Shown: piece by piece, positions 28,387 to 54,355 of the stretch
Position numbering within the stretch: the stretch's first letter is position 1
Layout: each line of letters starts with the position of its first letter
NCBI GenBank assembly: GCA_934120635.1
Contig: CAKOUR010000009.1
Span: forward strand, 15,406 to 79,405
Direction of reading: 5' to 3'
Origin: an uncultured Bacilli bacterium
GTDB lineage: Bacteria; Bacillota_I; Bacilli_A; RF39; UBA660
DNA length: 64,000 nucleotides
Program-made: the position numbers and the translations under genes
The notes under the pieces: model-generated
What the model was told of the DNA's origin: nothing
The model's input: only the letters and a program-made list of their open reading frames with translations
Database searches by the model: none

Positions 28387-29037
28387 ATGTATACGAGAAA
28401 AGAACTTGCGGATAAAGTAGGGATATCTGTTCAGAAGATAAAAGAATATGAGGAGAAGGGGTATTTAGCTTCTGTTTGTAATTTTATAACGGGGAATCAT
28501 TATTATAGTGATTATAAGCCAATATTGTTATCTTTTCTTTCTTGTTTAGAAAAAAGAGGTATGTCTCAAGAGAAAATTTTGGATGTTTTGAATGGAGAAA
28601 AATCTACAGAAATTGAATTATTGGAAAAAGAAAATTATATTCAGAATATTAATTTTTCGATTATTTCTGGTGATTATCAAGACTATGTTAAATGGAATGG
28701 TAAAAGGGAAGAGAATTCTGTTGAGGCACATGAGATAAAGACAAATCATGCTAAATATTATATTATTTTAGATGAAGATAGATTTTATGGAAATTTCTTA
28801 GTTTATTGTTATGAAAATACTTTTTTTGAAAATAGTTTACTTGTTTGTAATGATATTTTGTTTAATATTGTGATTGATTATTTAAAAGGAGAAGGTTATT
28901 CTTATATTACTTATTATGAATATAAAAAAGAAGAAAAAACAATTCAATATTTAAAAGATAAATATTCAGCAGAATTAATAGATGATAATGTTTTATTTGG
29001 AAATATTTTGTTTGTAAAATTAAAAATTATATTATAG
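28387..29037 (+). CDS. MerR-like HTH protein inserted between addB and addA
   Basis: The N-terminal YTRKELADKVGISVQKIKEYEEKGYL resembles a MerR-type HTH. The remaining 150 aa are not recognised. Confidence 0.5.
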   Translation: MYTRKELADKVGISVQKIKEYEEKGYLASVCNFITGNHYYSDYKPILLSFLSCLEKRGMSQEKILDVLNGEKSTEIELLEKENYIQNINFSIISGDYQDYVKWNGKREENSVEAHEIKTNHAKYYIILDEDRFYGNFLVYCYENTFFENSLLVCNDILFNIVIDYLKGEGYSYITYYEYKKEEKTIQYLKDKYSAELIDDNVLFGNILFVKLKIIL

Positions 29038-29055
29038 GATAAGGGAGGTAATTTG

Positions 29056-32000
29056 ATGATACCAATAAAGCCAGCTGATGTAACGTGGACTGATGAACAG
29101 TGGGAGGCAATTTATGAAGATCATAAGAATATTATTGTTTCTGCTGGTGCAGGTTCGGGGAAAACTGCTGTTTTAACAGAGAGGGTCATTCGTAAATTGA
29201 AAGATGGGGTTGATGTTAATCGGCTACTTATTTTGACCTTTACGAAGGCTGCTGCTGGAGAGATGGCGGATAGAATTCGAAAAAAAATTAAGAAGATTCC
29301 TGAATTAAAGGAGCAATTAGATTTATTAGATTCTGCTTATATTACTACTTTTGATAGTTTTGCTTTATCTATTGTTAAAAAATATCATTATTTATTAAAT
29401 ATTTCTCCTAGTATTGGGATTATTGATTCTAGTGTGATTACTTTGGAGAAAAGTAGAGTTATGGATGAGATATTTTTGTCTTATTATCAAGAAAAAGATG
29501 AAGATTTTTTGAAGATGATTCGTACTTTTTGTACGAAGGATGATACAGAAATTAAGAATTCTATTTTGAAAATTAGTAATCAATTAGATTTATTATCGGA
29601 TAAGAAGAAATATTTAGAAGAATATCTAGATAAGTATTATTCTGATGATCGATTAATTCGAAATGTAGAGGAATATTTTTCTCTTATTCAAGAGAAGATA
29701 GATTTTATTTTTGAGACGGTTTCTGCTATTTCTTTGCTTGATGCTGAGTATGCGATAAAGTTAGAAGAGTCTTTGGAGATGCTTAAAGAGATTCATTGTT
29801 ATAATGATATTCGTAAGTATTTAAATATTAAGTTGCCATCTGCTCCAAGGGGGAGTGAGGAAGAGTTAAAGAGTTTAAAGTCTTCTATTAGTGATGTACT
29901 TAAAGAGATAAAGAATTTGGCAGTTTATGAAGATGAAGAGGAGATTATTTCTACATTAAAGAGTACTTATGATACAGTTAAAGTAATGATAGAGATTATT
30001 TTAAAGTTTACGGATAAGATTTCTTGGTATAAAGAAGATAAGGGAGCTTATGAATTTAATGATATTGCTATTATGGCAATTGATATTGTTAAGAATTATT
30101 CTTATGTTCGGGATGAATTAAAAGAATATTTTAATGAGATTATGATAGATGAATATCAGGATACGAATGATTTGCAGGAAGAATTTATTTCCATGATTAG
30201 TAATCATAATGTTTATATGGTAGGAGATATTAAACAATCTATTTATCGTTTTAGAAATGCTAATCCTTATATTTTTAAGAATAAGTATGATTTATATAGT
30301 GAGAGTAAGATAGATAAAAAGATTGATTTGAATAAGAATTTTCGTTCTAGAAAAGAAGTATTAGAGAATATTAATGCAATTTTTACTTTAATTATGGGAG
30401 AAGAATTAGGAGGGGCTAATTATTTAGAGAGTCATCAGATGATTTTTGGTAATGGAGCTTATTTAAAGGAAGAGGCTAATCATTCTCATGAAATGGAGAT
30501 TGTTCGTTATCCTTATTCAAAAGAAGTTGGTTTTAGTAAAGATGAAATAGAAGCTTTTATTATTGCTCGTGATATTCAAGATAAAGTAAGGCATGGATAT
30601 TTGGTTTTTGATAAAGATAGTGGTATTTTGAGGAAATGTTTATATAGTGATTTTTCTATTATTATGGATAGGGCTACTACTTTTGATTTATATAAGAAAA
30701 TTTTTGGTTATTTGGGAATTCCTGTTACTTTATTAAAGAATGAAAAAATGAATGATGAGGATGATATTTTACTTATTTCTAATATTATTAAGTTGGTATT
30801 AAAACTTTCTGTAAAAGAGATAGATACGGAATTTAAATATTTATTTACTAGTATTGCTAGGAGTTTTTTGATTGGTCTTTCAGATGAGGAGATTTTTGAT
30901 TATTTTATTAAAAATACTTATATGGAAAGTGATGTGGTAGGGAAGTGTTTGAAGTTGGTAAGGACTCTTCCTTATACGACACCTCATCAACTTATTGATG
31001 ATATTATAGATAGTTTTTCTTTTTATGAGAAATATATTACTATTGGGAATGTTGAAGGTGGTATTGTTAAGTTAGCTAAAATTCGTGAGATAGCGATTAA
31101 TTTGGAGAGTTTAGGGTATTCAGTAAAGGATTTTTCTCTTTATTTATCTGAACTTTTAGAAAATGGAATTGAAATGCAATATGAAGTTAGTGATAATGGG
31201 GCTACTTCGGTTAAGTTGATGACTATTCATAAATCAAAAGGTTTAGAGTATCCTGTTTGTTATTTTAGTGGATTATATAAAAAGTTTAATATTAGTGATT
31301 TGAAAGAAAGGTTTTTATATGATAAGAATTATGGGATAATTACTCCTTATTTTCAAGAGGGAATAGGAGAGGTAATTTGGAAAGATTTAGTTAGAGATTG
31401 TTATTTAAAAGAAGAAATTAGCGAGAAGATTCGATTATTTTATGTTGCTTTAACGAGAGCACGTGAGAAGATGATTATGATTGTTCCTGAAAATGATAAG
31501 TTGAGAGATTTTTCTCAGGTAACAGTTTTAGAGGATTCTGTGAAAAAGAATTTTCGTACATTAGAAGATATGTTGGATTTTATTTCTTTTCGACTTTCTT
31601 CTTATGAGAAAAAGATATCTTTAGAGGATATTCACTTAACTAAGGACTATGCTTATTTAAAGAAAAGTAATTATCAGGAATCTCTTAGTAAAAAGAAAAA
31701 AGAAATTGAAGTATTTTCTTATTCATTTTCTCAGGATGAAGTGGAAAGTAAAAGTTTTTCTAAGAAGAATCATGAAGTGATTAGTAAGAATCAGTATGAA
31801 CTCATGAAACTTGGTACTATGGTACATGAATATTTGGAATTTTTTGATTTTAAGAATCCTTGTATTGAGAAAATAGAAAATAAAGAGGTACAGGAAATAA
31901 TCAAGAGACTTCTTAAGTGTTCAATATTTCAAAATATAGATAAGGCAAAAGTTTATCAAGAGTATGAATTTATTGATGAAGAGGGAAATCAAGAATTACA

Positions 32001-32202
32001 TGGGATTATTGATTTGATGCTTGTGTATGAAGATCATATTGATATTATTGATTATAAGTTATCTAATATTTATGATGATGATTATGATGAACAATTAAAT
32101 GGCTATTACAAGTATATTCAGAAGAAGACAGATAAGAAAATTCATCTTTACTTATATTCATTAATTAGTGGGGAATATAGAGAAGTAAAGAAAGTAGATT
32201 AG
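29056..32202 (+). CDS. addA: ATP-dependent helicase/nuclease subunit AddA (RexA)
   Basis: UvrD-type motifs AGAGSGKT, DEYQDTN and TIHKSKGLE. C-terminal RecB-type nuclease GIIDLMLVYEDHIDIIDYK. The start is moved to the ATG at 29056 after AAGGGAGG. Confidence 0.9.
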   Translation: MIPIKPADVTWTDEQWEAIYEDHKNIIVSAGAGSGKTAVLTERVIRKLKDGVDVNRLLILTFTKAAAGEMADRIRKKIKKIPELKEQLDLLDSAYITTFDSFALSIVKKYHYLLNISPSIGIIDSSVITLEKSRVMDEIFLSYYQEKDEDFLKMIRTFCTKDDTEIKNSILKISNQLDLLSDKKKYLEEYLDKYYSDDRLIRNVEEYFSLIQEKIDFIFETVSAISLLDAEYAIKLEESLEMLKEIHCYNDIRKYLNIKLPSAPRGSEEELKSLKSSISDVLKEIKNLAVYEDEEEIISTLKSTYDTVKVMIEIILKFTDKISWYKEDKGAYEFNDIAIMAIDIVKNYSYVRDELKEYFNEIMIDEYQDTNDLQEEFISMISNHNVYMVGDIKQSIYRFRNANPYIFKNKYDLYSESKIDKKIDLNKNFRSRKEVLENINAIFTLIMGEELGGANYLESHQMIFGNGAYLKEEANHSHEMEIVRYPYSKEVGFSKDEIEAFIIARDIQDKVRHGYLVFDKDSGILRKCLYSDFSIIMDRATTFDLYKKIFGYLGIPVTLLKNEKMNDEDDILLISNIIKLVLKLSVKEIDTEFKYLFTSIARSFLIGLSDEEIFDYFIKNTYMESDVVGKCLKLVRTLPYTTPHQLIDDIIDSFSFYEKYITIGNVEGGIVKLAKIREIAINLESLGYSVKDFSLYLSELLENGIEMQYEVSDNGATSVKLMTIHKSKGLEYPVCYFSGLYKKFNISDLKERFLYDKNYGIITPYFQEGIGEVIWKDLVRDCYLKEEISEKIRLFYVALTRAREKMIMIVPENDKLRDFSQVTVLEDSVKKNFRTLEDMLDFISFRLSSYEKKISLEDIHLTKDYAYLKKSNYQESLSKKKKEIEVFSYSFSQDEVESKSFSKKNHEVISKNQYELMKLGTMVHEYLEFFDFKNPCIEKIENKEVQEIIKRLLKCSIFQNIDKAKVYQEYEFIDEEGNQELHGIIDLMLVYEDHIDIIDYKLSNIYDDDYDEQLNGYYKYIQKKTDKKIHLYLYSLISGEYREVKKVD

Positions 32203-33327: not shown

Positions 33328-33813
33328 ATGAAAAAGAGTTTTAGTCATGTAATCATTATTGTTTATATTTTGTTAGCGGTATTTATTACGATATGTTTAT
33401 TATCTTATAATGATTATAATACAACAGAGTTTGGTAATAAGACAGTTGTTATTGTGAAGAATGATAAGACTGGTAAGTATAAGAAGGGGGATTTGTTGAT
33501 TGTTTCTTCTGAAAATACTTATAGGGAAGGTATGCAAGTGTTTTATTATGTTTCTAGGGGAAAGAGTTATTATATTCAAGTTGGGAATGTTAATGAGGTA
33601 AATAAAGATAGTGTTGTTGTTGATAATACTGTTATTGATAAGAAGTTTTTGATAGGATGTGATAATGATGTTAAGGCTATTCCTTTTGTTGGTAGTGTTT
33701 TAGCATTGTTGGAATCTAAGTGGGGTTATTTAGGAATTATTATTTTTCCTGTTTTAGGGGCTTTTTTATATGAAGTATATTCTATTTTAAAAGAGTTGAG
33801 GCGAGTAAGATAG
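33328..33813 (+). CDS. A1: signal-peptidase-I (SipW-type)-like membrane protein lacking the catalytic Ser and His (pseudo-peptidase)
   Basis: Same architecture as A6/B4: N-terminal TM, beta core with KKGDLLIV, C-terminal TM. VKNDKTGKY replaces SGSMEP and YIQVGNV replaces THRV. It is a paralogue of B2. Confidence 0.6.
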   Translation: MKKSFSHVIIIVYILLAVFITICLLSYNDYNTTEFGNKTVVIVKNDKTGKYKKGDLLIVSSENTYREGMQVFYYVSRGKSYYIQVGNVNEVNKDSVVVDNTVIDKKFLIGCDNDVKAIPFVGSVLALLESKWGYLGIIIFPVLGAFLYEVYSILKELRRVR

Positions 33814-33817
33814 GGAT

Positions 33818-34780
33818 ATGTTTAAGAGGATAAAGAATTGTTTAGTAATTAGAAAAGATGGCGTATGGAATTATAAAAGAATTATTATTTTTTCTATAGT
33901 TTTATTGATTGTTATAGGTAGTAGTGCTAGTTATGCTAAGTATGCTTATTTAGATATTAAAAATTATTATTTGGAGATGAAGGGCTTTTATTTTAATTGT
34001 GATAAGTTATCTAATAAGGGGGCTAATATAGAGATGACTAACTGGTCTGGGGTTGGTGATTATGAGATAACTTTTAATATGGATAGTCTTAGTAATAGAA
34101 ATTTGAAGAATAGTGATGATGTTTATTATGATATTAGTTATGAATGTTCTTCTAATGTTGTTTGTAGTATTAAGGATAATAAAACTAGTGGAATGATTCC
34201 TCATGATAGTAATCAAGATAGTTTTACTGTTGTTATTACTGTTCCTACTTCTGTTACTTTACATGATAAAGATAGTGTTACTTTGAAGGTTGTTGCTACT
34301 TCGACTTCACCTTATCGAAAGAAATTGGTTGGTAGTTTTAAATTAGTTGTTGGGTATTATGGACTTAGTTATGAGATAAGTGATAAGGTAGGAAGTCCAT
34401 ATTTGGAGGCTAAGGTTACTAATACATTGGACTATTATGTTGTAAGAGAGGCTTTTTCTAATTATAAGGTTAATACTCATATTGATATTCCTACTTATTT
34501 AGGATTGGATGATTTAGATAAGAAAAAATGTTCTTCAGCAATTATTACTTTTGATTTTAATCCTGATTATATTATTTTGGATATGACGGATGAGGCATAT
34601 TTGTCGGGAATTAGTAGTTCTACAAAAAGAATTGGGAACTATGATTATATTAATTCACTTTCTTTTTCAATTGATGCTTTATCAAGTATGCAAGTTAAGT
34701 TTTATAAGAAAGATACTAAGTTAAATTATACTTATCCTAATATAGATAATAATTCTATTATTAAGGTTTCATATAGTTAG
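33818..34780 (+). CDS. A2: secreted protein with a SipW/TasA-class signal peptide (class 'FY..D', paralogue of B5)
   Basis: Hydrophobic core followed by SSASYAKYAYLD, then KGFYFNCD (compare B5 IAFYLLD). The rest is beta-rich. Confidence 0.6.
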   Translation: MFKRIKNCLVIRKDGVWNYKRIIIFSIVLLIVIGSSASYAKYAYLDIKNYYLEMKGFYFNCDKLSNKGANIEMTNWSGVGDYEITFNMDSLSNRNLKNSDDVYYDISYECSSNVVCSIKDNKTSGMIPHDSNQDSFTVVITVPTSVTLHDKDSVTLKVVATSTSPYRKKLVGSFKLVVGYYGLSYEISDKVGSPYLEAKVTNTLDYYVVREAFSNYKVNTHIDIPTYLGLDDLDKKKCSSAIITFDFNPDYIILDMTDEAYLSGISSSTKRIGNYDYINSLSFSIDALSSMQVKFYKKDTKLNYTYPNIDNNSIIKVSYS

Positions 34781-34795
34781 AAAAGAGGATTTTTT

Positions 34796-35755
34796 ATGGA
34801 TGTTATTAATACTTATGTAGAATTTCGCCTTAGTAATTTTACTATTTATGCAAAGATGATTATGGGTAAGTATTTTGATCAAAATATATTTAATTTATAT
34901 TTAGATAGATATAAGATGGTTAGATATTATAATCAAGAAATAACTAGGAAGAGTACATTAGAGGCTACTTTAAATGCTTCTTTAGAAGAGATATATTTAA
35001 AAAATAATAGTGATGTTTCTAAATTTATTTTTGAATTATTTAAGATGTTTTATTATTTAGATGGTGTAAAAAAATTTAGGGGTAATAAGAATTTGAAAAG
35101 TTTTGTTTTAGAACTTGATGTTATTCGAAGAGAAAAATTAGGTTTTATAGATGATGAGTTTGTTTCTTCTTTTATGAAGGTTGTTTTGGATAACGAAAAG
35201 AGAAGTAGTCGCTATTTTAATAGATTTTCTTCTAATGATTTTTCTTTACAATGTAAAAAGATTAGGGGTGAGGATATTTATTTAGTTAATTTGTTGAATA
35301 ATATTGAGATACCTAGTCTTTATAGTGAGTATGCTATTGATAAAGTACTTAATGAGTCTAGAGTTTCTGTTGATATTTTATTTGTTCTTTATTATTTAAT
35401 TAGTATTTGTTTTTTAAAGGATATTGTAAAGGGAAATTTTAAGAAGAAGTATTTACTTGATTTTTCGGTAAAGATATTTTCTTCTTTGGAGAAAAGGCAG
35501 AAGTTTTTAAAAATATTTGATGATGATATTACTAAGGAGAATTTTATATTTAAAATTGATCCTATAGCTTTTCTTAGTTATGAAGAGGAAATTTGTTCTC
35601 TTATTCATGAGGGATATTCTTTTGGACTTATAATTAATTCTGATGATCAATATAATATGATTAAGAATAAGAATTTAGATTATTTTTCGTATTTATTTCT
35701 TGATAAGAAATTAGAGGGGTTGATAAGTGATAGTGATTTATATATTTTAATATAG
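34796..35755 (+). CDS. A3: cytoplasmic protein, possibly a degenerate EAL-like domain
   Basis: No TM segment or signal. LELDVIRREKLGFIDDEFVSSF, FIFKIDP and EGYSFGLIINSDDQ...YLFLDKKL follow the order of the EAL-domain motifs (EAL.R..G.isP.eFi / lEitE / G..ialDDFG / KiD), but with the catalytic residues replaced. Confidence 0.3.
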   Translation: MDVINTYVEFRLSNFTIYAKMIMGKYFDQNIFNLYLDRYKMVRYYNQEITRKSTLEATLNASLEEIYLKNNSDVSKFIFELFKMFYYLDGVKKFRGNKNLKSFVLELDVIRREKLGFIDDEFVSSFMKVVLDNEKRSSRYFNRFSSNDFSLQCKKIRGEDIYLVNLLNNIEIPSLYSEYAIDKVLNESRVSVDILFVLYYLISICFLKDIVKGNFKKKYLLDFSVKIFSSLEKRQKFLKIFDDDITKENFIFKIDPIAFLSYEEEICSLIHEGYSFGLIINSDDQYNMIKNKNLDYFSYLFLDKKLEGLISDSDLYILI

Positions 35756-35770
35756 GAAGGAAGTTTTAGG

Positions 35771-37294
35771 GTGCAGACGTATTTGAGGTTTTTATATGAA
35801 TTTTTGATGCAATTTTTTATTGGAATTAAGACTATTGTTTTTGGGATAGTTAATGGTGTTAAAGAAATTTTTAATATTTCTTCTTATATTAAGATTATTA
35901 ATTTTTATAAGGATGATTTTAATGGTCCTGAATGGGTTTTTGTTGTTATTGCTATTATATTATTGATTGTTCTTGTGTTAGCTATTTTTTTAATTATTTT
36001 CTTTTTGATTAAAAAATATTTAAGATTTAGAAAGACTTTGGTAGAGCAAGAAGATTTGTTGGAGGAAGTTGCTACTTTAAATAATGAGGTGTCTAGTTTG
36101 GTTAAGGAGAAAGAGAGTATTTTAGCAATGAAGGTTTCTCATTTGGGATTAAAACCTTCTGAACTAGATGAAGAGGATGATGATACTAGTAATGATAATA
36201 CTTCTAATGGTGAGGAATATCGTTTTCCTAAGTTACATTCTATAGATGAGGCTTATCTTAATTATAAGATTAAGAATTATAATAATAATTTTACTTTACC
36301 TGAGTTAGTAGAAGATTTTAGAAATTTTGCTGCTTCACATTTAAAACTTTATTATAAGACAGAGATGATTAGATTGTTTATTTCGGCTTTAGCGTCGACA
36401 AAGCTGGTTATTTTGCAAGGTATTTCTGGTACTGGTAAGACTTCGCTTGCTTATGCTTGGGGAAAGTTTTTAAAGCATGATTCTTGTGTTGCGTCTGTAC
36501 AGCCATCTTGGAGAGATAGAACTGAGTTATTTGGTTATTTTAATGAATTTACGAAGAAGTTTAATGAAACTGAAGTTTTGAAAGAGATGTATTTAGCTGG
36601 TTACACGGATGATGTTTATACGGTTATTTTGGATGAAATGAATATTTCTAGGGTTGAATATTATTTTGCAGAGATGTTATCTATTCTAGAAATGCCTAAT
36701 AAGGATGAATGGATTGTTGAACTAGTTAGTGCTAGTTGGAAAAATGATCCTAAGAATATTATTGATGGTAAGTTAAAGATACCCCCTAATATGTGGTATA
36801 TTGGGACTATTAATAATGATGATTCTACTTTTATGGTAACAGATAAAGTTTATGATAGAGCAATGCCTCTCGATATTAATGATAAGGGGCAAGTTTTTGA
36901 ACCTAAGGATGTTCCTGCTCAGGATATTAATTATACTTATCTTGATAAGTTGTTTCAAGAGGCTATTAATGATAATCAAATTAGTCAAGAAACTTTAGAT
37001 AAGATAGAGATTATGGATGATTATGTTATTAAGCATTTTAGAATTGCTTTTGGTAATAGAATTGTTGCTCATATGAAGAAGTTTGTTCCTGTTTATGTTG
37101 CTTGTGGTGGAGAAGAAGTAGATGGTGTTGATTATTTTTTAGCAAGAAAGGTTCTTCGAAAGTTTGAACAATTGAATGTATCTTATATTAGGGATGAAAT
37201 AGATGGATATATTGAATTTTTAGATAAAACTTTTGGTAAGGGTAAGATGAAAGAATGTGAAGAGTATTTACTTAGACTTAAGAAATTAACTTAA
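35771..37294 (+). CDS. A4: membrane-anchored McrB-like AAA+ (GTPase-type) protein
   Basis: GTG start after AGGAAGGAAG. N-terminal hydrophobic segments (WVFVVIAIILLIVLVLAIFLIIFFLI), a coiled coil and an acidic linker. Then Walker A GISGTGKTS (36419-36445), VQPSWRDRTELFGYF, Walker B VILDEMNISRVEYYFAEMLSILE and YIGTINNDDST. These are colinear with E. coli McrB motifs GPPGVGKT / VQFHQSYSYEDFIQGY / FIIDEINRANLSKVFGE / IIGLMNTADRS. Confidence 0.7.
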   Translation: MQTYLRFLYEFLMQFFIGIKTIVFGIVNGVKEIFNISSYIKIINFYKDDFNGPEWVFVVIAIILLIVLVLAIFLIIFFLIKKYLRFRKTLVEQEDLLEEVATLNNEVSSLVKEKESILAMKVSHLGLKPSELDEEDDDTSNDNTSNGEEYRFPKLHSIDEAYLNYKIKNYNNNFTLPELVEDFRNFAASHLKLYYKTEMIRLFISALASTKLVILQGISGTGKTSLAYAWGKFLKHDSCVASVQPSWRDRTELFGYFNEFTKKFNETEVLKEMYLAGYTDDVYTVILDEMNISRVEYYFAEMLSILEMPNKDEWIVELVSASWKNDPKNIIDGKLKIPPNMWYIGTINNDDSTFMVTDKVYDRAMPLDINDKGQVFEPKDVPAQDINYTYLDKLFQEAINDNQISQETLDKIEIMDDYVIKHFRIAFGNRIVAHMKKFVPVYVACGGEEVDGVDYFLARKVLRKFEQLNVSYIRDEIDGYIEFLDKTFGKGKMKECEEYLLRLKKLT

Positions 37295-37312
37295 TGGGAG
37301 GGAGCGATTTTT

Positions 37313-38422
37313 ATGGGTTTGGAGGTTATTGATTTATATCAAAAGACAAATAGTAAGAGTACTAGGGGTTTTTTGGATAAAATTGATTCTAATTTAAATG
37401 TTAAGAGTGATTATGAGAAGGTTGATTCTAATTTAGAATGGCTTACTAAAATGGAGGATACTATTTATTATTTAGATAATATTTTAAGAAATCCTAATCG
37501 ATTTATTGTTAATGAGGAGGATATTGTTAAGATTGAATTGGCAAGAAGAGTTACGGTTGAGAGTATTAAGCATTTATCTAGGAATACAAATTTAATTCAA
37601 GATTATGATCGAAAAACGGGAAATGTTAGACCTTCTAAAATACTTAATATTAATAAAGAAGAGAGTTTTAATACTTATGAAAATCGTTTTATTTATAGTT
37701 TAATTCAGAATATGAGGGGCTTTATTGCTAGAAAGAAGCAGGCTGGTATTGTACCTAGTAGTATTCGTGATGATAAAGTATTAGAGTATAATGCTAGTAC
37801 AGTGATTGGAAAAGAAAAAGTTAAAATGTCAATGCAGCTTAATTCTAAACTTGATGAAGAAGGTTCTAATGCATCGGCTGATGAGATTAGTAAGAGGATT
37901 GAAAAGTTAGAGTTACAGATATCAGATTTGATGAATAGTGATGTTTATAAGACTTTGGCAAAACTTCATGTAGCTCTTGTTACTTCTCCAATAAAAAAGA
38001 CAAATGTTATTTTAAAAAATGTTAATTTTCAATATGCTGAAAAATTATGGAATTATATGCAAGAAGAGTTAATGAATGAACCTGGTGTTTTTAGGAAAAA
38101 GAAGAATTATCAGGATAAGGGAAGTTTGAAGTCTAATTTTGATGAAACTTTTTTGCTTAATTATTTAATTATGAATAAGATGGATAATAAGAAACTTACC
38201 ATAGAGGAAAAGGAAGAGGTTTCTTCTAAAATTACTTATGGTATGATAGAGGAATTAATGAAGTTAAATGAAAATATTAGTGAAGAAGAGTTAAAGAAGA
38301 TGGTTTCTTTACAGTATGGAAAGATTAAATATAAGCAAGTTGTTAGTAATAGGAAAATTATAGATATTTATATTAAACATATAAATAAGTATTTAAAGAA
38401 AATAGAGAGTATAGAAATATAG
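37313..38422 (+). CDS. A5: McrC N-terminal/DUF2357-like protein without a recognisable PD-(D/E)xK nuclease
   Basis: LRNPNRFIVNEEDIVKIELARRVTVESIKHLSRN...FNTYENRFIYSLIQNM resembles the region upstream of the nuclease in McrC/DUF2357-DUF524 proteins (the ..tpENRF.. motif, from memory). The C-terminal half is coiled-coil-rich. Confidence 0.4.
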   Translation: MGLEVIDLYQKTNSKSTRGFLDKIDSNLNVKSDYEKVDSNLEWLTKMEDTIYYLDNILRNPNRFIVNEEDIVKIELARRVTVESIKHLSRNTNLIQDYDRKTGNVRPSKILNINKEESFNTYENRFIYSLIQNMRGFIARKKQAGIVPSSIRDDKVLEYNASTVIGKEKVKMSMQLNSKLDEEGSNASADEISKRIEKLELQISDLMNSDVYKTLAKLHVALVTSPIKKTNVILKNVNFQYAEKLWNYMQEELMNEPGVFRKKKNYQDKGSLKSNFDETFLLNYLIMNKMDNKKLTIEEKEEVSSKITYGMIEELMKLNENISEEELKKMVSLQYGKIKYKQVVSNRKIIDIYIKHINKYLKKIESIEI

Positions 38423-38443
38423 GATAGATATGGTTGGTGGAGT

Positions 38444-39007
38444 ATGAAAAATACAGTTGATAAAATTAAAAATAATAAATGTTTAAGGATTATTTATAAA
38501 GTATTAAAAGCAATAACGACTTTGTTAATTATTTTAATTGTTAGTGTTATTTTTGTTCAAAGAATATCTAATAATAAAGTAACAATAGGTGGATATAGTG
38601 TTTTTACGATTATTACAGAGAGTATGGTGCCTAAATATCAAGTTGGAGATATGTTGCTATCTAAGAAATGTGCTATTGATAAGATTAAAGTAGGTGATGA
38701 TGTTGTTTATATGGGAAAAAGTGGTACTTTTGAAGGAAAAATTGTAACTCATAGGGTGATAAAAATTGATAAAACTAGTAATGGATTAGAGTTTCATACG
38801 AAAGGTATTGCTAATGCTGTTGAAGATCCTTTAGTTAATGGTGATCAAATTTATGGAGTTGTTAGTAAGAAATTATTCTTTTTGAGTATGCTTAGTAAGT
38901 TAGTTAATAATATATATGGCTTTTATTTTATTATTTTTATCCCTTTTGCAATTATGATATTTCTTGAAATTATTGCTATGATGCATGAAAAAGATAAGAA
39001 AAATTAA
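38444..39007 (+). CDS. A6: signal peptidase I, SipW/archaeal-ER type
   Basis: N- and C-terminal TM segments. Nucleophile context TIITESMVP (the Ser codon AGT is at 38621-38623). His context IVTHRVIKID. Then HTKGIANAVED. Confidence 0.75.
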   Translation: MKNTVDKIKNNKCLRIIYKVLKAITTLLIILIVSVIFVQRISNNKVTIGGYSVFTIITESMVPKYQVGDMLLSKKCAIDKIKVGDDVVYMGKSGTFEGKIVTHRVIKIDKTSNGLEFHTKGIANAVEDPLVNGDQIYGVVSKKLFFLSMLSKLVNNIYGFYFIIFIPFAIMIFLEIIAMMHEKDKKN

Positions 39008-39645
39008 TGAATAATAATAATCAGCTATTAAAAGTCATATGGAAAGTTGTTAAAAAGAGATTTAAACTTAGTCATTTATTGTTTATTGCATTACTTCTTA
39101 CTTGTAATTCTTTTGCTTGGTTTATTTATATGAATAAGATCGATAGTGATATTGATGTTAAGGTAAAGGCTTGGAATGTTTCTTTTCGCTTTGATAATCA
39201 AACTATGAGTGATTATATTAAATTTGATGTTCGGGATATATATCCTGGAATGGAAGATAATAGACAAGAGGTTTCTGTTACGAATGATGGTGAAGTAGCG
39301 GCTAAACTTTACTATGAAATTGTTAGTGTTAGAATTTTTGATAAAACTTATTCGGTAAATGATGGTGGTTTTAGTTCTTCAGAGATTGAAAATGTACTTA
39401 ATCAGTCTTATCCTTTTAAGATTAATATTTCTTCTGATAAAGAGGTTATTGATGGTAAGGGAGGTGTTGCTAAGTTTATTGTGAATGTTTCTTGGCCTTA
39501 TGAAACTTTGGATGATAATGGAGAACTAAAGGATTTGGATGATACTTATTGGGGAAATAAAGCTTATTCTTATGGTAAGGAATATCCAGATAAGCCTTGC
39601 GTTTTGTTAAATATAAAATTATCAGCAACACAGGTAAATAATTAG
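39007..39645 (+). CDS. A7: small TasA/camelysin-like secreted protein (class 'AxWK', paralogue of A8 and B3)
   Basis: Signal core followed by CNSFAWFIY, then DVKVKAWNVSF (compare A8 NVSIARWKILV and B3 GVSVASWKIKV). The start overlaps the A6 stop (TAATG). Confidence 0.6.
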   Translation: MNNNNQLLKVIWKVVKKRFKLSHLLFIALLLTCNSFAWFIYMNKIDSDIDVKVKAWNVSFRFDNQTMSDYIKFDVRDIYPGMEDNRQEVSVTNDGEVAAKLYYEIVSVRIFDKTYSVNDGGFSSSEIENVLNQSYPFKINISSDKEVIDGKGGVAKFIVNVSWPYETLDDNGELKDLDDTYWGNKAYSYGKEYPDKPCVLLNIKLSATQVNN

Positions 39646-39814: not shown

Positions 39815-40456
39815 TTAATTTGTATTTTGAACTGTTGGAAGTTGAATAAATTTTAAATGAACATTTACTTTTGCTAATCCATCTTTGATGGTGGTTGTAT
39901 TAGTGTCAGCTTTATTGTCCATAGTTGCACCATTATTTTCATCATCATTCCATTTTAAATATACTCTTATTTTTAATTCTTTGTTTTTACTATTGTAAGG
40001 AATTTGATCTTCTATTTTTATTTGATTATCTTTAGAAATTATTTCTTGTTTTTCTCCATCATTTAAGGAATATCCTGAAATTGACATATCTTTTACAATG
40101 CTGTTATCGTTATTGCTGGTAGTAATCTCATATTTTAATGATACATCTGTATTAGAAGCATCGATTATCATATCGAAATATCCTTCTGCTGTTGGAGCAA
40201 TAACATTAGCAGCAATATTATCGTTTCCTTTAAAAATAGGACTAATGATATTAGTTAATTCTTTTTCGGTTGTTATATCTTTATTGTTTACTAATATTTT
40301 CCAGCGAGCGATAGACACATTAGCATCTGATGTGGTTTGAGTTATATATTTAGCATATGTTTGTTTTATTGTGAATATTGATAATATAATTAAGAAACTT
40401 AAAGATAAAATCAGAATTTGTTTTTTTCTCTTTTCTTTTTTTGATATATAAGGCAT
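39815..40456 (-). CDS. A8: small TasA/camelysin-like secreted protein (class 'AxWK'), on the opposite strand
   Basis: Signal core followed by KQTYAKYITQTTSD, then NVSIARWKILVNN. RBS GAGGAGGAA is upstream on the minus strand. Confidence 0.6.
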   Translation of the reverse strand: MPYISKKEKRKKQILILSLSFLIILSIFTIKQTYAKYITQTTSDANVSIARWKILVNNKDITTEKELTNIISPIFKGNDNIAANVIAPTAEGYFDMIIDASNTDVSLKYEITTSNNDNSIVKDMSISGYSLNDGEKQEIISKDNQIKIEDQIPYNSKNKELKIRVYLKWNDDENNGATMDNKADTNTTTIKDGLAKVNVHLKFIQLPTVQNTN

Positions 40457-40567: not shown

Positions 40568-41284
40568 ATGAGTAAAGTTGTTGTAACAGCTAGTCGTTTA
40601 GAGAGAAGAAAAAAGATTAATAAGTATTTGAAGAGAATTACTTTAATTTTAATGATATTGTTTGCTTTTTTGTATATTATTTTAGCAATTATTTATAATG
40701 GTGGTAATTTTACTATTACTTTGGATCCTACTTTTTCGGCTGATACAGGGATAGTTTTATATGAAAATAGAGAAAAGAAAGAAATTAAAAATAGGTTATA
40801 TGCTAAAGAGATAGATTCAATGGATAATATTTCTATTAAGTGGATTCCAGATAATATTGATGATGAGAAAGATGGAGCACATAATGGTGATAATTACATA
40901 GCGTATACTTTTTATTTAGAGAATGAGGGAAAAGAGGAGATTAATTATTGGGTAGAATGTACGATTGATGATGTTATTCGCCGAATTGATGAGGCTGTTA
41001 GAATAATGATTATTTTAAATGGGGATAAGGTTGTTTATGCTAAGGAGAATAGTCTTACAAAGATGGCGGAGGATGGTACGGAAAAGTTTTATAAAAGTAA
41101 GGTGCCAGTTCTAAGAAAAAGATCTAATTTTAAGTCTGGGGATATTGATAAATATACAATAGTTGTTTGGGTAGAAGGTGATGATCCTGATTGTGTAGAT
41201 GCTTTGATTGGTGGAGAGATTAAGATGCATTTAGATATTAGAGATGAACATATTTCTAATTTGAATAAAGAAAAGAAGAAATAG
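40568..41284 (+). CDS. A9: membrane-anchored protein sharing the C-terminal W.EG.D.DC motif with A10 and B6
   Basis: Basic N-terminus plus a TM segment (ITLILMILFAFLYIILAIIY), but no [ST][YF][AS]x[FY] motif. The C-terminal VVWVEGDDPDCVDALIGGEIKMHL parallels A10 and B6. Confidence 0.55.
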   Translation: MSKVVVTASRLERRKKINKYLKRITLILMILFAFLYIILAIIYNGGNFTITLDPTFSADTGIVLYENREKKEIKNRLYAKEIDSMDNISIKWIPDNIDDEKDGAHNGDNYIAYTFYLENEGKEEINYWVECTIDDVIRRIDEAVRIMIILNGDKVVYAKENSLTKMAEDGTEKFYKSKVPVLRKRSNFKSGDIDKYTIVVWVEGDDPDCVDALIGGEIKMHLDIRDEHISNLNKEKKK

Positions 41285-41292
41285 GTGAAAAT

Positions 41293-42339
41293 ATGGGAAA
41301 GAGAATAAGGACGAGGAAGATTTACTATTATGAAGAGGTAGAAGAAGATAGTGTTGATAAGAAAAAAGTTGTTTATTTATTATTTTTACTTTTGATGACT
41401 GGAATTATGCTTGCTACTTCTACTTATGCATGGTTTACAACTAATCGTATAGTTAAGGTTGATACTTTGAATATTAAGGTACAAAGTGAGGGGAGTTTAG
41501 AAATTTCTGTTGATGGTATTAATTGGAAACCTGGTATTACTCAAGAAGAACTTGCTGCTGCTAGAAGTACTTATCCTGGTAGTGTTAATCAGCTTCCTTC
41601 TTTGATTGAGCCAGTATCAACGGTTGGAGAGCTTGATAATCGTGGCTTTATGAATATGTATTTGGGTGTAGTTAAATCTAATAGTATGGGAGATTATATT
41701 TTAACTTCAACTAAAAGTACTGAGATAGAGGGAAATGGTGAATTATCTGATGGTAAGTTTGTGGCTTTTGATTTATTTTTAAAGACAACTGAGGCTAAGG
41801 ATTTGTATTTAACTGGTAAATCTGGGGTTACTTATAATGGTAATGCTAGTGTTGGAACTGAAAATGCTATTCGAGTTGCTTTTGTTAATGAAGGGAATGT
41901 AATGGATGGTAGTGGAAGTTCGGTTATTCAGTCTCTTGCTACAACTAATCGGGATAATGTTTATATTTGGGAGCCTAATTATGATACTCATACTTTAACT
42001 GGCATTAGTAATGCTTTAGATATTTATAATATAACAACTAGTTTAAATGGGGCTCAATATATCCCTTATGATGGGGTACAATCTGAGATTAGTGAGGATG
42101 AAAATATTACTTTAAAGAGATCTTTTGCTAGTTATTATCCTAATAAATTTTTTAGGGTTACGCCTTTTTTAATTACTCCAAGTGGTAGTAATACTTATCA
42201 AAAGTTTATTAATTTACCTAGTGGTATTACTAAAATTAGGGTTTATTTATGGTTAGAAGGACAAGATGTTGATTGTGAGAATAATGCTTCTGTTGGGGAC
42301 TTAGCTTTTACTTTGGAGTTTAGTACTAATCCCTCTTAA
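41293..42339 (+). CDS. A10: large secreted subunit-like protein with SipW/TasA-class signal (paralogue of B6)
   Basis: LATSTYAWFTTNRIVKVDTLNIKVQSEGSLEISVDG matches B6 LSTSTYAWFTSNRTVTVEDINVNVAASGGIQVSVDG. The shared C-terminus is YLWLEGQDVDCENNASVGDLAFTLEFS. Confidence 0.65.
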   Translation: MGKRIRTRKIYYYEEVEEDSVDKKKVVYLLFLLLMTGIMLATSTYAWFTTNRIVKVDTLNIKVQSEGSLEISVDGINWKPGITQEELAAARSTYPGSVNQLPSLIEPVSTVGELDNRGFMNMYLGVVKSNSMGDYILTSTKSTEIEGNGELSDGKFVAFDLFLKTTEAKDLYLTGKSGVTYNGNASVGTENAIRVAFVNEGNVMDGSGSSVIQSLATTNRDNVYIWEPNYDTHTLTGISNALDIYNITTSLNGAQYIPYDGVQSEISEDENITLKRSFASYYPNKFFRVTPFLITPSGSNTYQKFINLPSGITKIRVYLWLEGQDVDCENNASVGDLAFTLEFSTNPS

Positions 42340-42456: not shown

Positions 42457-45400
42457 ATGCGTTATCGTAATGTTAAGACTAGTAAGATTTTGATTACGAT
42501 TATTCTTTCTGTTTTTGTTATTGCATCTATTACTACTTATTCATTAACTTATAGTGAATATACAACAACTACTACTTTGTCAGAAGTGGAAAATGCTAGT
42601 GGTATTTTTGATAATACAGTTGTTGTTGATGATAGTACAAGTGATTATAATTATTATATGAGTTTAAATTATACAGAAAATTCTTCTAATACTCTTCCTA
42701 CTGGTGTTAATCAAAATATTTATACTAAAAATAATTTAGTTAATGTAGAAATTACTTATGATGGTAGTTCTATTGATGATAATTCTTTAGTTGGGTATGT
42801 TAGTTTGTCTGAGAGACAAAATATTTATAAGTATTATAAGATGTATCCTGTTGTGGATGGATATGTTGATATTCCATTAATAGAAAATCCTTTTACAGAC
42901 AGGCCTACTAATATGGGATTTAATGGTTGGGTTACAGATTATTCTGGTGTAATTCTTCGCTATGATGATAAATTTTATGAGAGGTATGCGAGGGTTCCTG
43001 TTAACTCTATTGGTGATGTTAAGATTACTTTTCATGCTAGTTGGGTTAGTGCTAATGTTGGAAATATTACTTCTAGTTCTAATCAATGGTCTAGTGCTTT
43101 TGGTTCTTTGAATAAGAAGGGTATGGTCCAACTTGGTGGGTCTATTCCTGTTTATGAGAGTGTTGTTGGTCTTTATACTAAGGAACATATTTCTGGTGGT
43201 AGTTGGTGGAATAGAGTTTATTTTCCTGAAAATTCTTTTGATGATTCTGGGAAGAATATAGAGGGGCAACAGTGTCGTGATTGGAATGGCTGTGATTATT
43301 ATGCTAAGGTTTTAGCTGATGTTTATAATGCTGGTGTTACTTATTATAAGTTGGTAAATAAGAGGATGCAAAGTTATACTCCAAAGATTACTGGTTATGA
43401 TGAACTTCCTGGTTTGGAACCTGGTAAGGTTCTTGCTTCTTTTTATCGCAAGGTTAAGATTAATCGTTATGAGGATATTAGTGGATATTATAATGATGAT
43501 GGTGTATATCAAGAGAGTGGTACTTGTAGTAGTAGTTCTGGGTGTTTTTATTATGAATTGGTACAATATTATGATAATAATGGTCAAGTAGAGACTGTTG
43601 TTGATGGTGAGAGTTATTATTATCTTGCTACTAGGGATACTAATATTATTGTTATGAAATCTAATACTAGTAGTGTTCCTTCTGATAGTATGGTTAAGCC
43701 TTATACTTTAACTAGTGTATATAATGGTGTTGATTATCGTAATAATGTTACTTGGACTGTTTCCAATTCTGCTGTTTATGCTTATAGTGATGTTAATATT
43801 GAGAATATTAGAATTAATTCTAATGCTTTAGATGATGGAAAAAATAATCCGACTTCTAGTGCTAGTTCTTCTAGGTATTTTTATGGTAATTATCATAATG
43901 TTAGGTTTGGAAGAGGAATTCTTAGAACTGGTAATTATAAGAATTTTTATGGTATTTTGGGGGGAGATAATAAGTATGAAAATTTGGGGAATAGTGGTAA
44001 TGTATATAAGTATAGTTTAATTATTGAGAGTGGTTTTTATAATGTTCTTTCTTTATCTAATGGTAGTGTTTATGATAATTATAGTTGGAATACTAGTAAT
44101 AAGTATATTATGAATAAGTCTATATATGGTAATGATTATGATAGGGTGAAGAAGGATAATGATAAGTTTGATGTTTCTTTTTGTGCTGCTGCTAGTTGGG
44201 GTGGAGGAGATTATTATTCGTCTTCTAATATTGGCTATGATTTAGTTGTTAAAAGTGGTAGTTTTGGTACTAAAAAAGTTGATTATTCTGCTGGCCTTTA
44301 TATGGGAGGAAGAGGTTATGGAGAGCATTATACTTCTAAGAAAACAAAGATTGAGGGAGGATGGATTTATAATTTAATTGGTGGTCCTTCTGTTGGTAGT
44401 AGTAGATCTAATTATAATGATATTTATCTTTATATGACTGGTGGAGAAGTCGATTCTATTGTTGGTGGTGCTGGTCTTAGTACAACTTATGGTAATAGAG
44501 TTTTAGCGATTACTGGTGGTGTTGTTAATTATCATGTTTTTGGTGGATCTAATGGTTATATTGGAAATAGTGGTGATGGAAAATTAACTGGTAGTTCGTT
44601 TATTTATGTTGGTGGAAATGCTTTAATTGGTAATGAGAATAATGTTAATAATAATACTAAGTTATGGGGTGCTGAAGCTGGTTCTGTATTTGGTATAGGT
44701 AATGGGAACTCTAGTAATGATTCAATTGGGACTAATGATAATTCTGCTATTATTATAGATGGTGATGCTATAGTTTCTGGTAATGTATATGGTGGAGGTA
44801 ATTATGGAGCTACTGGGATTAATGGTACTGGTAATAATTATACACATATTAATTTATTAGGTGGTCTTGTTAAAGGTAATGTATATGGTGGGGGTAATAA
44901 TAATGGAGCTGGTTCTTCTTCAAATTTTAAAGTAAATATTGTTTTAAATGGTGGTGTTGTTGAGGGATCTATTTATGGTGGTTCTAGGACAAAGGGGACT
45001 ATTTCTGGTTCGGTTAATTTGAATTTATTATCTGGTCATGTAAAGACTTCTTGCTATGGTGGTGGTGAGGGTGGCTATGTATCTTCTACTAATTCTGGAA
45101 CTTTTGTTACAGGTAATGTTGATGTTGTTGTAGGGAATACTGATGCTGATAATAAGTTATTAAAAATTGATAATTCTATTTATGGTGGTAGTGCTTTTGG
45201 AACTGTAAATGGTTCTAGTAATTCTTCTAATATTTCTAGTTATAATACTACTTTACAGGTATTATCTGGAACGATTAATAATGTATATGGTGGGGGTGAA
45301 GGAAATGATACTTATACGCCATATGTTCTTGGGAATGTTAATGTTGATGTATATGGTGGAAGTATTAATAATGTTTTTGGAGGATCTGATCAAAAGGGAA

Positions 45401-50279: not shown

Positions 50280-50399
50280 ATGGATAAAGTGAAGGAATTA
50301 TCTCATGAGGAGCTATTGGAAGTATATAGTAAAATAGATGAAATAATAACTTATCTTGAAAAAGAGAAACAAAGTATGGAGGATAAAGATGGTGAATGA
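50280..50399 (+). CDS. B0: possible 39-aa acidic coiled-coil ORF overlapping the B1 start
   Basis: ATG at 50280 after GGTGATAGG. Translates to MDKVKELSHEELLEVYSKIDEIITYLEKEKQSMEDKDGE. The stop TGA (50397-50399) overlaps the B1 start in ATGGTGAATGA. It falls below the ORF-track length cutoff. Confidence 0.3.
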   Translation: MDKVKELSHEELLEVYSKIDEIITYLEKEKQSMEDKDGE

Positions 50400-51882: not shown

Positions 51883-51929
51883 ATAAAACTATGTTATACT
51901 AAATTTAAATAGAAGGTGGGATTTATTTT

Positions 51930-52466
51930 ATGAAAAAATTTTTAAAGATAATTGGTGGAATTATTTTAATTCCATATTTGTTTGTTGTAATTATTATGAC
52001 TGTTTGTTTAATTAATTATAATAAGTATGGTGTTACAGAGATATTTGATAAGACATTTGTTATTGTGTCTGATGATTCTTTAAAACCTCTTTATCAAAAG
52101 GGAGATTTGCTTATTGTTACTAATAAGGGGAATGATGATATTGCTTCTGGTGATCAGATATTTTTTTATGAACAAAATAAGGAGAAGAAAAGGGTTGTTA
52201 TTAATTTAGCTAAGGTTGTATCTAAGAGAAAGATTACAAATGTAGAAACTACTTTTGAGATAGATGGTGGGTATGAATATTCTAGTGAATATGTTATTGG
52301 TTCTGCTAAAAATACGGTTGTTTATCATAAATTAGGTAGTGTTTTAAAGATTTTATCTTCAAGATGGATTTTCTTATTTGTTATTATTTTACCTATTTTA
52401 TTTATCTTTTTATATGAGTTATATGAATTTATTCTTGAGGTTAAGCGTAATTTAAAAGAGGTTTAG
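51930..52466 (+). CDS. B2: signal-peptidase-I-like membrane protein lacking the catalytic His (pseudo-peptidase; paralogue of A1)
   Basis: N- and C-terminal TM segments. VSDDSLKPLYQKGDLLIV aligns with SGSMEP...DLVIV of B4. INLAKVV replaces THRV. Confidence 0.6.
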   Translation: MKKFLKIIGGIILIPYLFVVIIMTVCLINYNKYGVTEIFDKTFVIVSDDSLKPLYQKGDLLIVTNKGNDDIASGDQIFFYEQNKEKKRVVINLAKVVSKRKITNVETTFEIDGGYEYSSEYVIGSAKNTVVYHKLGSVLKILSSRWIFLFVIILPILFIFLYELYEFILEVKRNLKEV

Positions 52467-53644: not shown

Positions 53645-53656
53645 GGAGGGATTTTT

Positions 53657-54241: not shown

Positions 54242-54255
54242 TTTGAAAAAATATG

Positions 54256-54296
54256 TTGCAATTTGTCGAAAGATATGATATCATAAATTTATGATA
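54256..54296 (+). promoter_or_regulatory. promoter of B6 overlapped by a 16-bp perfect palindrome (candidate operator)
   Basis: TTGCAA (54256-54261), 17-nt spacer, TGaTATCAT (54276-54284). ATCATAAATTTATGAT (54280-54295) is a perfect palindrome. TATGATAT occurs twice (54274-54281 and 54289-54296). Confidence 0.5.
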
Positions 54297-54355
54297 TGGA
54301 TAGGTAGAAGATACTACTTATTTTAGAGTCAAATATGAATAAAAGGAGTAGAAAA

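Follow-up and report, generated by a model that had tools for sequence, protein, structure and literature searches.

A membrane-anchored McrB-type AAA+ protein and a nuclease-less McrC-like partner embedded in a conserved SipW peptidase locus of small-genome gut Bacilli

McrBC is the textbook DNA restriction motor. In the described enzyme, a hexameric ring receives in its pore the N-terminal domain of McrC, which contacts the aspartate of the signature motif and stimulates GTP hydrolysis (Bell, Sahakyan, Makarova, Wolf and Koonin, eLife 2024; PMC11090510). The same article names CoCoPALM, in one paragraph and with the analysis deferred, as a large clade of McrB-like GTPases with an NxD signature fused to an FtsB-like transmembrane (TM) and coiled-coil domain. 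Here, we analyze a pair of genes, A4 and A5, found in a stretch of 64,000 nucleotides from an uncultured Bacilli bacterium (contig CAKOUR010000009.1), hereafter the window, where they lie among genes encoding SipW-type signal peptidases and a family of proteins anchored by their N-terminus. The gene names A1 to A11 are the labels of an earlier note on this DNA, extended along the locus. The pair and its main parts are the following.

35771-37294, + strand: A4, 507 aa, GTG start, a membrane-anchored coiled-coil McrB-like AAA+ NTPase of the NxD type
35771-36142, + strand: N-terminal region of A4 (aa 1-124), comprising a conserved helix, a TM segment (aa 55-80) and a coiled-coil-like helix (aa 52-124)
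36419-36442, + strand: Walker A of A4, GISGTGKT (aa 217-224), with G217, G220, G222 and K223 invariant among 41 homologues
36629-36643, + strand: Walker B of A4, LDEMN (aa 287-291), with D288 and N291 invariant, aligning to DEIN of Escherichia coli McrB
36812-36823, + strand: signature motif of A4, NNDD (aa 348-351), an NxD variant aligned to NTAD of E. coli McrB
37313-38422, + strand: A5, 369 aa, a DUF2357 (McrC N-terminal) protein without nuclease, followed by a poorly conserved helical C-terminal tail
37394-38077, + strand: DUF2357 core of A5 (aa ~28-255), with a variable insert at aa ~145-215

The locus shares with CoCoPALM the NxD McrB-like GTPase bearing an N-terminal TM segment and coiled coil (A4), the adjacent DUF2357 McrC homologue (A5) and the association with the signal peptidase family (A6). 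The A4/A5 pair is a member of this named yet uncharacterised class and is not categorically new; the combination that the earlier note had held to be unusual thus already bore a name in PMC11090510. A TM segment and a coil are also what A4 has in common with the FtsB-like N-terminal domain, homology to FtsB or FtsL being just hinted at (E 0.06-0.23). The McrC homologue of the window's clade differs in being minimal (~370 aa) and appears to lack the long coiled coil that CoCoPALM "usually" has on this protein; McrC homologues of other clades carry long charged coiled coils. A full-text literature search on the class returned only PMC11090510 and its preprint. What appears to go beyond the published account is, on the one hand, a clade-wide, fixed 11-gene synteny in small-genome gut Bacilli, where A4 is exceptionally conserved, and, on the other hand, a minimal, coil-poor McrC homologue, pseudo-SipW genes and DUF2357::SipW fusions in Ruminococcus.

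Compared with E. coli McrBC, A4 retains the AAA+ core with Walker A, Walker B and the N..D signature over 166 alignable columns, and its partner is likewise a separate protein with a DUF2357-type activator domain, as defined in PMC11090510. The differences reside in the TM segment and coiled coil that replace the DNA-binding N-terminal domain, in the NxD rather than NxxD signature, in A5, which lacks the PD-(D/E)xK nuclease and has no profile similarity to E. coli McrC, and in the context, which in the window consists of envelope proteins instead of restriction-modification genes. The nearest non-membrane relatives of A4 are those of CoCoNuT systems (CnuB/CnuC), with ~40% identity in the GTPase, a homologous DUF2357 domain and coiled-coil N-terminal fusions. 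CoCoNuTs differ in that their defence islands encode HEPN-like proteins, helicases and long McrC homologues, none of which is found in the window; searches with Pfam, PADLOC and profiles found no HEPN, PD-(D/E)xK or other nuclease in A3, A5 or their neighbours. All 10 sampled non-membrane relatives (550-870 aa) match the PADLOC candidate PDC-M26A, and a literature search on PDC-M26 found no paper. In the two non-membrane loci examined, the GTPase is encoded between a HEPN-like protein of 517-534 aa and a DUF2357 protein of 676-783 aa. The proteins encoded 5' of these GTPases (L081:4461-6014 and L084:573-2177) end with an R-N-x(3-4)-H HEPN-like motif, and a Upf1-like helicase, PP2C and kinase genes, an OLD-family nuclease and a Cas-related gene also lie nearby. 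Such surroundings are the CoCoNuT-type defence context described in PMC11090510.

With regard to secretion, the TapA-SipW-TasA, SipW-CalY and SipW-BsaA operons of Bacillus and Clostridium resemble the locus by encoding a dedicated SipW beside several secreted proteins that carry an aromatic-rich motif after an N-terminal hydrophobic segment. The window differs from them by putative substrates without TasA or Peptidase_M73 similarity and by the presence of probable pseudo-peptidases and of a 2536-aa protein. None of these Bacillus and Clostridium systems is known to include an NTPase. A functional analogy exists with PilB/PilC of type IV pili, where a cytoplasmic hexameric NTPase and its membrane partner are combined with a dedicated signal peptidase and N-anchored subunits. 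This analogy does not extend to homology, as the NTPase is of the McrB-type AAA+ rather than the secretion-ATPase kind, the peptidase is a SipW-type serine enzyme rather than the aspartic PilD, and the window contains no class III signal peptide.

Sequence profiles, the signature motif and the partner gene are the grounds on which A4 is assigned to McrB. Three E. coli McrB entries were the sole significant matches of A4 among all PDB sequences (phmmer, E 2-3e-3), and a family profile built from 41 diverse homologues again retrieved McrB as the only AAA+ match in the PDB (E 1.2e-5). Using hhalign, the A4 family aligned with E. coli McrB (sequence taken from NC_000913) with a probability of 96.8% (E 2.4e-10); the 166 aligned columns start upstream of Walker A and run past the signature motif, which bears out the colinearity with the McrB AAA+ core proposed in the earlier note. 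With the MoxR-family protein RavA, this profile reached a probability of 7.8% over 47 columns limited to the P-loop. Pfam returned only weak P-loop and AAA_5 matches.

The motifs quoted in the earlier note are all in place, i.e., GISGTGKTS at aa 217-225, VQPSWRDRTELFGYF at aa 243-257, VILDEMNISRVEYYFAEMLSILE at aa 285-307 and INNDD at aa 347-351. The last one had been equated with the NTAD motif of McrB; its placement was right, but the motif is a shortened NxD and not a canonical NxxD. Within it, 41 of 41 homologues have N348 and D350 unchanged, and D, E or Q at position 351. An NxD usually followed by E or by a second D is the signature of a major McrB branch, and the McrB phylogeny of PMC11090510 places the TM/coiled-coil GTPase clade in this branch. 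The other invariant residues of A4 are R294, E296, T346, S352, T353, R363 and R430, and although the 41 homologues reach down to 33% identity, Walker A, Walker B, NxD and the arginines remain invariant.

No DNA-binding N-terminal domain was matched in A4 by Pfam or NCBIfam; instead, aa 1-147 comprise a TM segment, a coiled-coil helix and an acidic linker, in line with what had been read from the letters, and now with the backing of hydrophobicity and structure prediction. The AlphaFold2 model (predicted local distance difference test, pLDDT, 83.9) has helices at aa 2-33, 36-49 and 52-124, the last one continuous, a disordered acidic linker at aa 125-147, and an alpha/beta AAA+ core followed by a helical lid in the C-terminal part. 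Hydrophobicity on the Kyte-Doolittle scale rises up to 3.9 in the TM segment (maximum 3.88 at aa 58-76), and a weaker hydrophobic segment lies at aa 7-34 (~1.4). The basic cluster KKYLRFRK that follows the TM segment would place the coil and the NTPase in the cytoplasm. Weak FtsL-type matches of Pfam and NCBIfam profiles cover aa 56-116 (E 0.06-0.23), far under the cut-offs. As judged from its motifs, A4 is thus a catalytically intact, membrane-anchored McrB-type AAA+ protein of the NxD branch.

A5 matches the Pfam domain DUF2357 (PF09823) over aa 28-144 with 46.2 bits (E 4.4e-12), above the gathering cut-off of 23.3, and its homologues bear the public name "DUF2357 domain-containing protein". 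PF09823 is the N-terminal domain of McrC that binds and activates McrB (Bell et al., 2024). Residues 42-267 of A5 align with the N-terminal 270 residues of a 676-aa protein whose gene directly follows that of a related GTPase (E 2e-15), and hhalign aligned aa 40-280 of the A5 family with residues 148-381 of the 783-aa McrC-like protein of L084 with a probability of 94.6%. The conserved blocks are at aa 42-135 and 219-250, the YENRF sequence pointed out in the earlier note being present at aa 122-126. About 110 poorly conserved residues extend beyond DUF2357, with only helices modelled after aa 271, and homologues measure 351-396 aa (~370 aa in the window's clade; n=120, among the matches listed). 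Neither Pfam, NCBIfam nor PADLOC matched a nuclease family in A5, which bears out the absence of a PD-(D/E)xK motif and leaves no hidden nuclease domain by these searches. No PDB match was obtained by sequence or by profile. The likeness to McrC claimed in the earlier note stands as far as DUF2357 is concerned, whereas the fold was not confirmed, Foldseek returning no match. As to a coiled coil, the structure model of A5 offers just short helices (aa 189-218) besides the helical tail. The stretch modelled worst, aa 63-117 (pLDDT <50), is yet the best conserved one of A5, and may fold only on a partner. A5 is a complete stand-alone McrC N-terminal (DUF2357) domain.

Both genes are integrated in a tightly packed array. 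The intergenic gaps are of 15 nt between A3 and A4, 18 nt between A4 and A5, and 21 nt between A5 and A6, exactly within the range given before, and Shine-Dalgarno-like GGAGG or GGAAGG sequences precede A4, A5 and A6. Homologues of A4 align from residue 1, which supports the position of the GTG start. No terminator-like hairpin was found on the + strand at 33328-39645. The window is AT-rich throughout, the composition profile giving a GC content of 0.23-0.32 without any break at A4/A5. A horizontally acquired island was considered and ruled out by this uniform composition and by the conserved synteny.

Conservation was assessed with a genome scan (one genome per species) that yielded 161 stretches with an A4 relative, the best 80 of which were used as loci. 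The record titles of these 80 genome loci read "Bacilli bacterium", "uncultured Tenericutes" or "Clostridium sp. CAG:914/628/451/567/609"; they include one closed 1.26-Mb chromosome, and we take them to be RF39-type small-genome gut Bacilli. The order A1-A2-A3-A4-A5-A6-A7-(A8 reversed)-A9-A10-A11 is retained almost without exception. A4 is by far the most conserved gene of the locus, with identities of 72-91% (median 77%), the medians of its neighbours ranging from 30 to 54% (53% for A5, 49% for A6, 46% for A10, 44% for A2, 34% for A1 and 30% for A3). The AAA+ core and lid of A4 are near-invariant, and its first 20 residues are strongly conserved as well. No conserved genes and no addA orthologue were found in the flanks outside the cluster, which means that the conserved unit is the cluster itself and not its chromosomal neighbourhood. 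Some records of metagenome-assembled genomes (L005, L026, L034, L036, L042, L047, L052 and L079) contain the locus with the same synteny and 75-81% A4 identity under Muribaculaceae, Sphaerochaetaceae, Oribacterium, Paludibacteraceae or Bacteroidaceae titles; these are probably mislabelled or contaminated bins and not real occurrences.

Beyond this clade, an exhaustive search of 1.84 billion cluster representatives detected 8247 relatives of A4, 767 of them at E <1e-30. Those of full length (~500 aa) have the membrane N-terminus, and those of 550-870 aa share the GTPase only, at ~40% identity. Among 2.9 million viral contigs, only three remote relatives were found (27-36% identity). A metagenome scan seeded with distant membrane-type homologues of A4 provided 80 further loci, of which six belong to the window's clade and 74 to others. 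Within the latter, a DUF2357 protein is encoded after A4 in 71 loci, a SipW-like gene is present in 69 and A9/A10-like genes in 59; the co-occurrence of TM-McrB/McrC-like pairs with SipW genes, a question raised by the earlier note, is thus recurrent even at this distance. A4 directly precedes A5 in 77 of the 80 metagenome loci, with a median gap of 18 nt. Loci missing a partner mostly have A4 near a contig end or lie on short contigs. Nevertheless, neither SipW-like nor A9/A10-like genes occur in L168, although >6 kb is available on each side, and L136 has no A9/A10-like genes within its 8 kb downstream. Additional copies of the pair were also observed: L072:1-1800 contains a second GTPase/DUF2357 pair (65% and 33% identity), L088:6988-11503 carries two pairs in tandem, and L163 likewise has a second or tandem copy. 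As far as gene order can tell, A4 and A5 are genetically locked to SipW-type peptidases and to a family of N-anchored paralogues, and their embedding among such genes, as described in the earlier note, is borne out.

Outside the window's clade, the DUF2357 partner is larger (313-1057 aa, median 678), the surplus corresponding to a long, highly charged coiled coil in which Pfam found coiled-coil-type matches only and no nuclease. In L120, L148 and L149, single open reading frames (ORFs) of 984-1057 aa encode successively DUF2357, a coiled coil, a TM helix and a SipW-type Peptidase_S26 domain, and a further fusion is found in Ruminococcus albus. The four ORFs are 981-1057 aa long.

L120:1948-5121: DUF2357::SipW fusion, both domains above Pfam cut-offs
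L148:9589-12558: DUF2357::SipW fusion, both domains above Pfam cut-offs
L149:9561-12515: DUF2357::SipW fusion, both domains detected by the hidden Markov models (HMMs) of the A5 and A6 families
L175:6289-9234: DUF2357::SipW fusion of R. albus, Ser and His boxes intact

The GSMEP and THRI boxes are intact in L120, L148 and L149, and these three fusions are only 50-70% identical to one another, which argues for a conserved architecture and not for an assembly error. The 120 best-matching 90%-identity clusters to one fusion are nearly all of ~940-1130 aa; according to their Pfam records, 55 have both domains, most others one and a few none. They include proteins of cultured R. albus, R. flavefaciens and Ruminococcus sp., which are annotated just as "signal peptidase I". 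In L175, the order is A10-like (reversed, with ATSTYAWFT), EAL-domain gene, A9-like, SipW, A4 homologue and fusion. This A4 homologue is 51% identical to that of the window over its full length, membrane N-terminus included, and the A9 HMM matches a protein of the locus at E 8e-62. The EAL-domain gene (L175:2326-3084, cyclic di-GMP phosphodiesterase) lies inside the R. albus locus and hints at control by cyclic di-GMP. The fusion sets a topology with DUF2357 in the cytoplasm and the peptidase outside. Moreover, its sequence points to a physical coupling of the DUF2357 protein to the SipW-type peptidase and makes it arguable that the McrC-like protein and SipW share one complex in unfused systems as well.

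Taken with the synteny, we consider it rather probable that an NxD-branch McrBC module, stripped of its DNA-binding and nuclease parts, was recruited to a housekeeping surface-structure machine and does not act against phages. By analogy with McrBC, A4 would form a cytoplasmic hexameric ring hung beneath the membrane by six TM/coiled-coil stalks, and the DUF2357 stalk of A5 would enter this ring and stimulate GTP hydrolysis. A5 would also bridge the ring to SipW. Hydrolysis may then power the processing of the N-anchored subunits (A2, A7-A10 and A11), their extraction from the membrane and/or their polymerisation, or set the timing of these steps; the product would be a surface fibre or adhesin, in which the giant A11 is the candidate adhesin. 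In such a machine, A4, A5 and SipW would be functionally comparable to the ATPase, platform and peptidase trio of type IV pili. More tentatively, and with a somewhat less than even chance in our estimation, A4 and A5 could power a third kind of Gram-positive surface-filament machine, undescribed so far, in which a McrBC-derived GTPase ring hanging from the membrane acts directly on SipW through the McrC N-terminal domain and couples GTP hydrolysis to the cleavage, extraction and polymerisation of N-anchored subunits. This possibility jointly supposes that the machine differs from sortase-dependent systems, from type IV pili and from passive assembly of the TasA type. If true, a restriction enzyme motor would have been exapted in full to assemble an organelle, and this would be a core trait in small-genome gut Bacilli and cellulolytic Ruminococcus.

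Several observations weigh against the recruitment of a McrBC module to surface-structure assembly. Foldseek searches with the A4 model ranked dynein, MCM, RavA, NorQ and 2r44 first (E 1e-7 to 1e-5), and McrB was absent among the top 50 matches; with this predicted structure, Foldseek confirms an AAA_5-type fold without discriminating among families. The model of A5 is poor (pLDDT 65), Foldseek found no fold match for it at this low confidence (best E 4.6e-3, TM-score 0.13), and hhalign detected no profile similarity between the A5 family and E. coli McrC. For the putative substrates, similarity was detected neither to TasA nor to a solved structure, and the term fibre is used because of their N-terminal architecture and SipW association only. 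Finally, the GTPase activity, the hexamer, the contacts of A5 with A4 and with SipW, and the fibre itself are all inferred.

The first of these points would suit a generic AAA_5 ATPase of the MoxR/dynein type with a superficial resemblance to McrB, as would the weak Pfam AAA_5 match. We find this barely credible considering the hhalign probabilities (96.8% over 166 columns for McrB against 7.8% over 47 columns for RavA), McrB being the sole significant PDB sequence match, and the McrBC-specific combination of an NxD signature with an obligatory DUF2357 neighbour, which agrees with the placement in the NxD branch in the phylogeny of PMC11090510. Defence is the other function that the earlier note had contemplated: the pair would be a CoCoNuT-like, McrBC-derived abortive-infection module with a membrane or envelope effector replacing the nuclease. 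In its favour, and against a surface role, the AAA+ core of A4 matches the PADLOC candidate-defence profile PDC-M26A (E 4.8e-32), and the nearest non-membrane relatives (~40%, 550-870 aa) sit in defence-island-like contexts. Nevertheless, defence genes are normally patchy and fast-evolving, while A4 is syntenic in the best 80 of the 161 stretches and is their most conserved gene. Neither A3 nor A5 has a detectable nuclease or HEPN, the flanks encode SipW and N-anchored proteins, the DUF2357 partner is fused to SipW in Ruminococcus, and relatives of A4 are nearly absent from viral contigs. Defence is improbable on this evidence, and the synteny, the conservation of A4, the SipW fusions and the lack of nuclease and HEPN favour the motor recruited for fibre or adhesin assembly.

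A regulatory switch is a stronger contender, although still an unlikely one. The nucleotide state set by A5 would gate SipW or license export in response to a cytoplasmic signal without any mechanical work being done. TasA-type fibres of Bacillus are not known to need an NTPase, and the EAL-domain gene of the R. albus locus is compatible with signalling. In McrBC, McrC is an activator of the McrB GTPase (Bell et al., 2024). The data suit a switch and a motor alike; the extreme conservation of the AAA+ module and lid, and the long rigid DUF2357-SipW coiled coils of other clades, fit force transmission no worse. By comparison, a cell-division or envelope-biogenesis factor, in which an FtsB/FtsL-like membrane coiled coil would be joined to an NTPase without relation to the secreted neighbours, is very improbable. 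It draws on the weak FtsL-type matches at aa 56-116 of A4 (E 0.06-0.23), on the term FtsB-like used in PMC11090510 for the N-terminal domain, and on the high conservation of A4 in small genomes. These matches are far under the cut-offs, and the topology of A4 must be the reverse of that of FtsB because the coil is contiguous with the cytoplasmic NTPase and KKYLRFRK follows the TM segment. Furthermore, the neighbours in all clades are SipW and N-anchored proteins, and no division genes.

The two-subunit engine of McrBC, without DNA binding or nuclease, is here a core and very strongly conserved part of a putative secretion or fibre locus, one that occurs in abundant uncultured small-genome gut Bacilli and in cultured Ruminococcus. 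Should the coupling to SipW be real, it would constitute a new nucleoside triphosphate-driven route to Gram-positive surface structures, and would clearly exemplify how a defence motor can be exapted for building the cell envelope. The Ruminococcus fusions offer a cultured entry point for experiments.

Including a second module, the locus covers ~22 kb (33328-55510). Its other components are listed below, with occurrences and medians among the 80 genome loci.

33328-33813, + strand: A1, SipW-like, without Ser/His boxes; in 71 of 80 loci
33818-34780, + strand: A2, N-anchored, SYAKY after the TM segment, putative secreted subunit; in 76 of 80 loci, median identity 44%
34796-35755, + strand: A3, cytoplasmic; in 79 of 80 loci, median identity 30%
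38444-39007, + strand: A6, SipW/archaeal-type signal peptidase I with Ser and His boxes; in 78 of 80 loci
39007-39645, + strand: A7, N-anchored, SFAWF motif, member of the A7-A10 paralogous family; in 77 of 80 loci
39815-40456, - strand: A8, N-anchored paralogue, TYAKY motif
40568-41284, + strand: A9, N-anchored, basic cytoplasmic tail; homologue in the R. albus locus
41293-42339, + strand: A10, N-anchored, putative major subunit; paralogue at 54335-55510
42457-50067, + strand: A11, 2536-aa N-anchored giant repeat protein, putative adhesin; conserved downstream of A10
50356-55510, + strand: second module, encoding a 508-aa protein, an A1 paralogue, an A8-like protein, a second SipW, a small N-anchored protein and an A10 paralogue

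A6 matches the NCBIfam family TIGR02228 with 73 bits (E 2.4e-20; cut-off 51.85), and its catalytic boxes, ESMVP (SM.P) and THR (HR), are conserved. The second SipW (53057-53644) has an SGSMEP box and Peptidase_S24/S26 matches. A1 is cross-matched by the HMM of A6 and gives a weak NCBIfam SipW match (E 1.8e-3), but an alignment of 72 sequences (window and 71 homologues) contains no conserved SM.P or HR motif; from its sequence, A1 is probably a pseudo-peptidase. Its paralogue in the second module (51930-52466) is 32% identical to it, and both lack the Ser/His boxes of A6 and 53057-53644; the two probably serve as structural parts of the machinery. A3 is clade-specific and always directly 5' of A4 in the window's clade, at the place that HEPN-like proteins take in CoCoNuT-like relatives; Pfam, run on 13 members of its family, gave no match, and neither did a PDB profile search. 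That A3 could be a degenerate HEPN or nuclease partner was considered and rejected, BLASTP and hhalign comparisons with CoCoNuT-like HEPN-like proteins being negative and no histidine being conserved.

The putative substrates A2 and A7-A11 share a basic N-terminus and one TM segment followed by an aromatic motif (YAWF, FAWF or YAKY). A7, A8, A9 and A10 cross-match each other's HMMs, and in the A10 family A46, W47 and F48 are invariant right after the TM segment. A2 has no Pfam match and A11 only a sub-threshold one. Peptidase_M73/TasA was not matched by Pfam in A2 or A7-A10, the A10 family had no PDB profile match, and hhalign found no similarity between this family and an approximate TasA query sequence, so that the TasA label given to the fibre substrates in the earlier note is unsupported by these searches. 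The A10 paralogue of the second module is 42% identical to A10. In other species, the second module is located upstream of A1, a circularly permuted arrangement. A8 stands alone on the opposite strand within the cluster, and this inversion is kept in nearly all loci having A8 at this position, with L064 as an exception; it implies at least three transcription units, A1-A7, A8 and A9-A11. Finally, upstream of the locus in the window, large ORFs at 25987-28371 and 29053-32202 were read from their translations alone as addB-like and addA-like, respectively, and are separated by a 216-aa ORF (28387-29037) whose N-terminus was read, likewise from translation alone, as a MerR-type helix-turn-helix.

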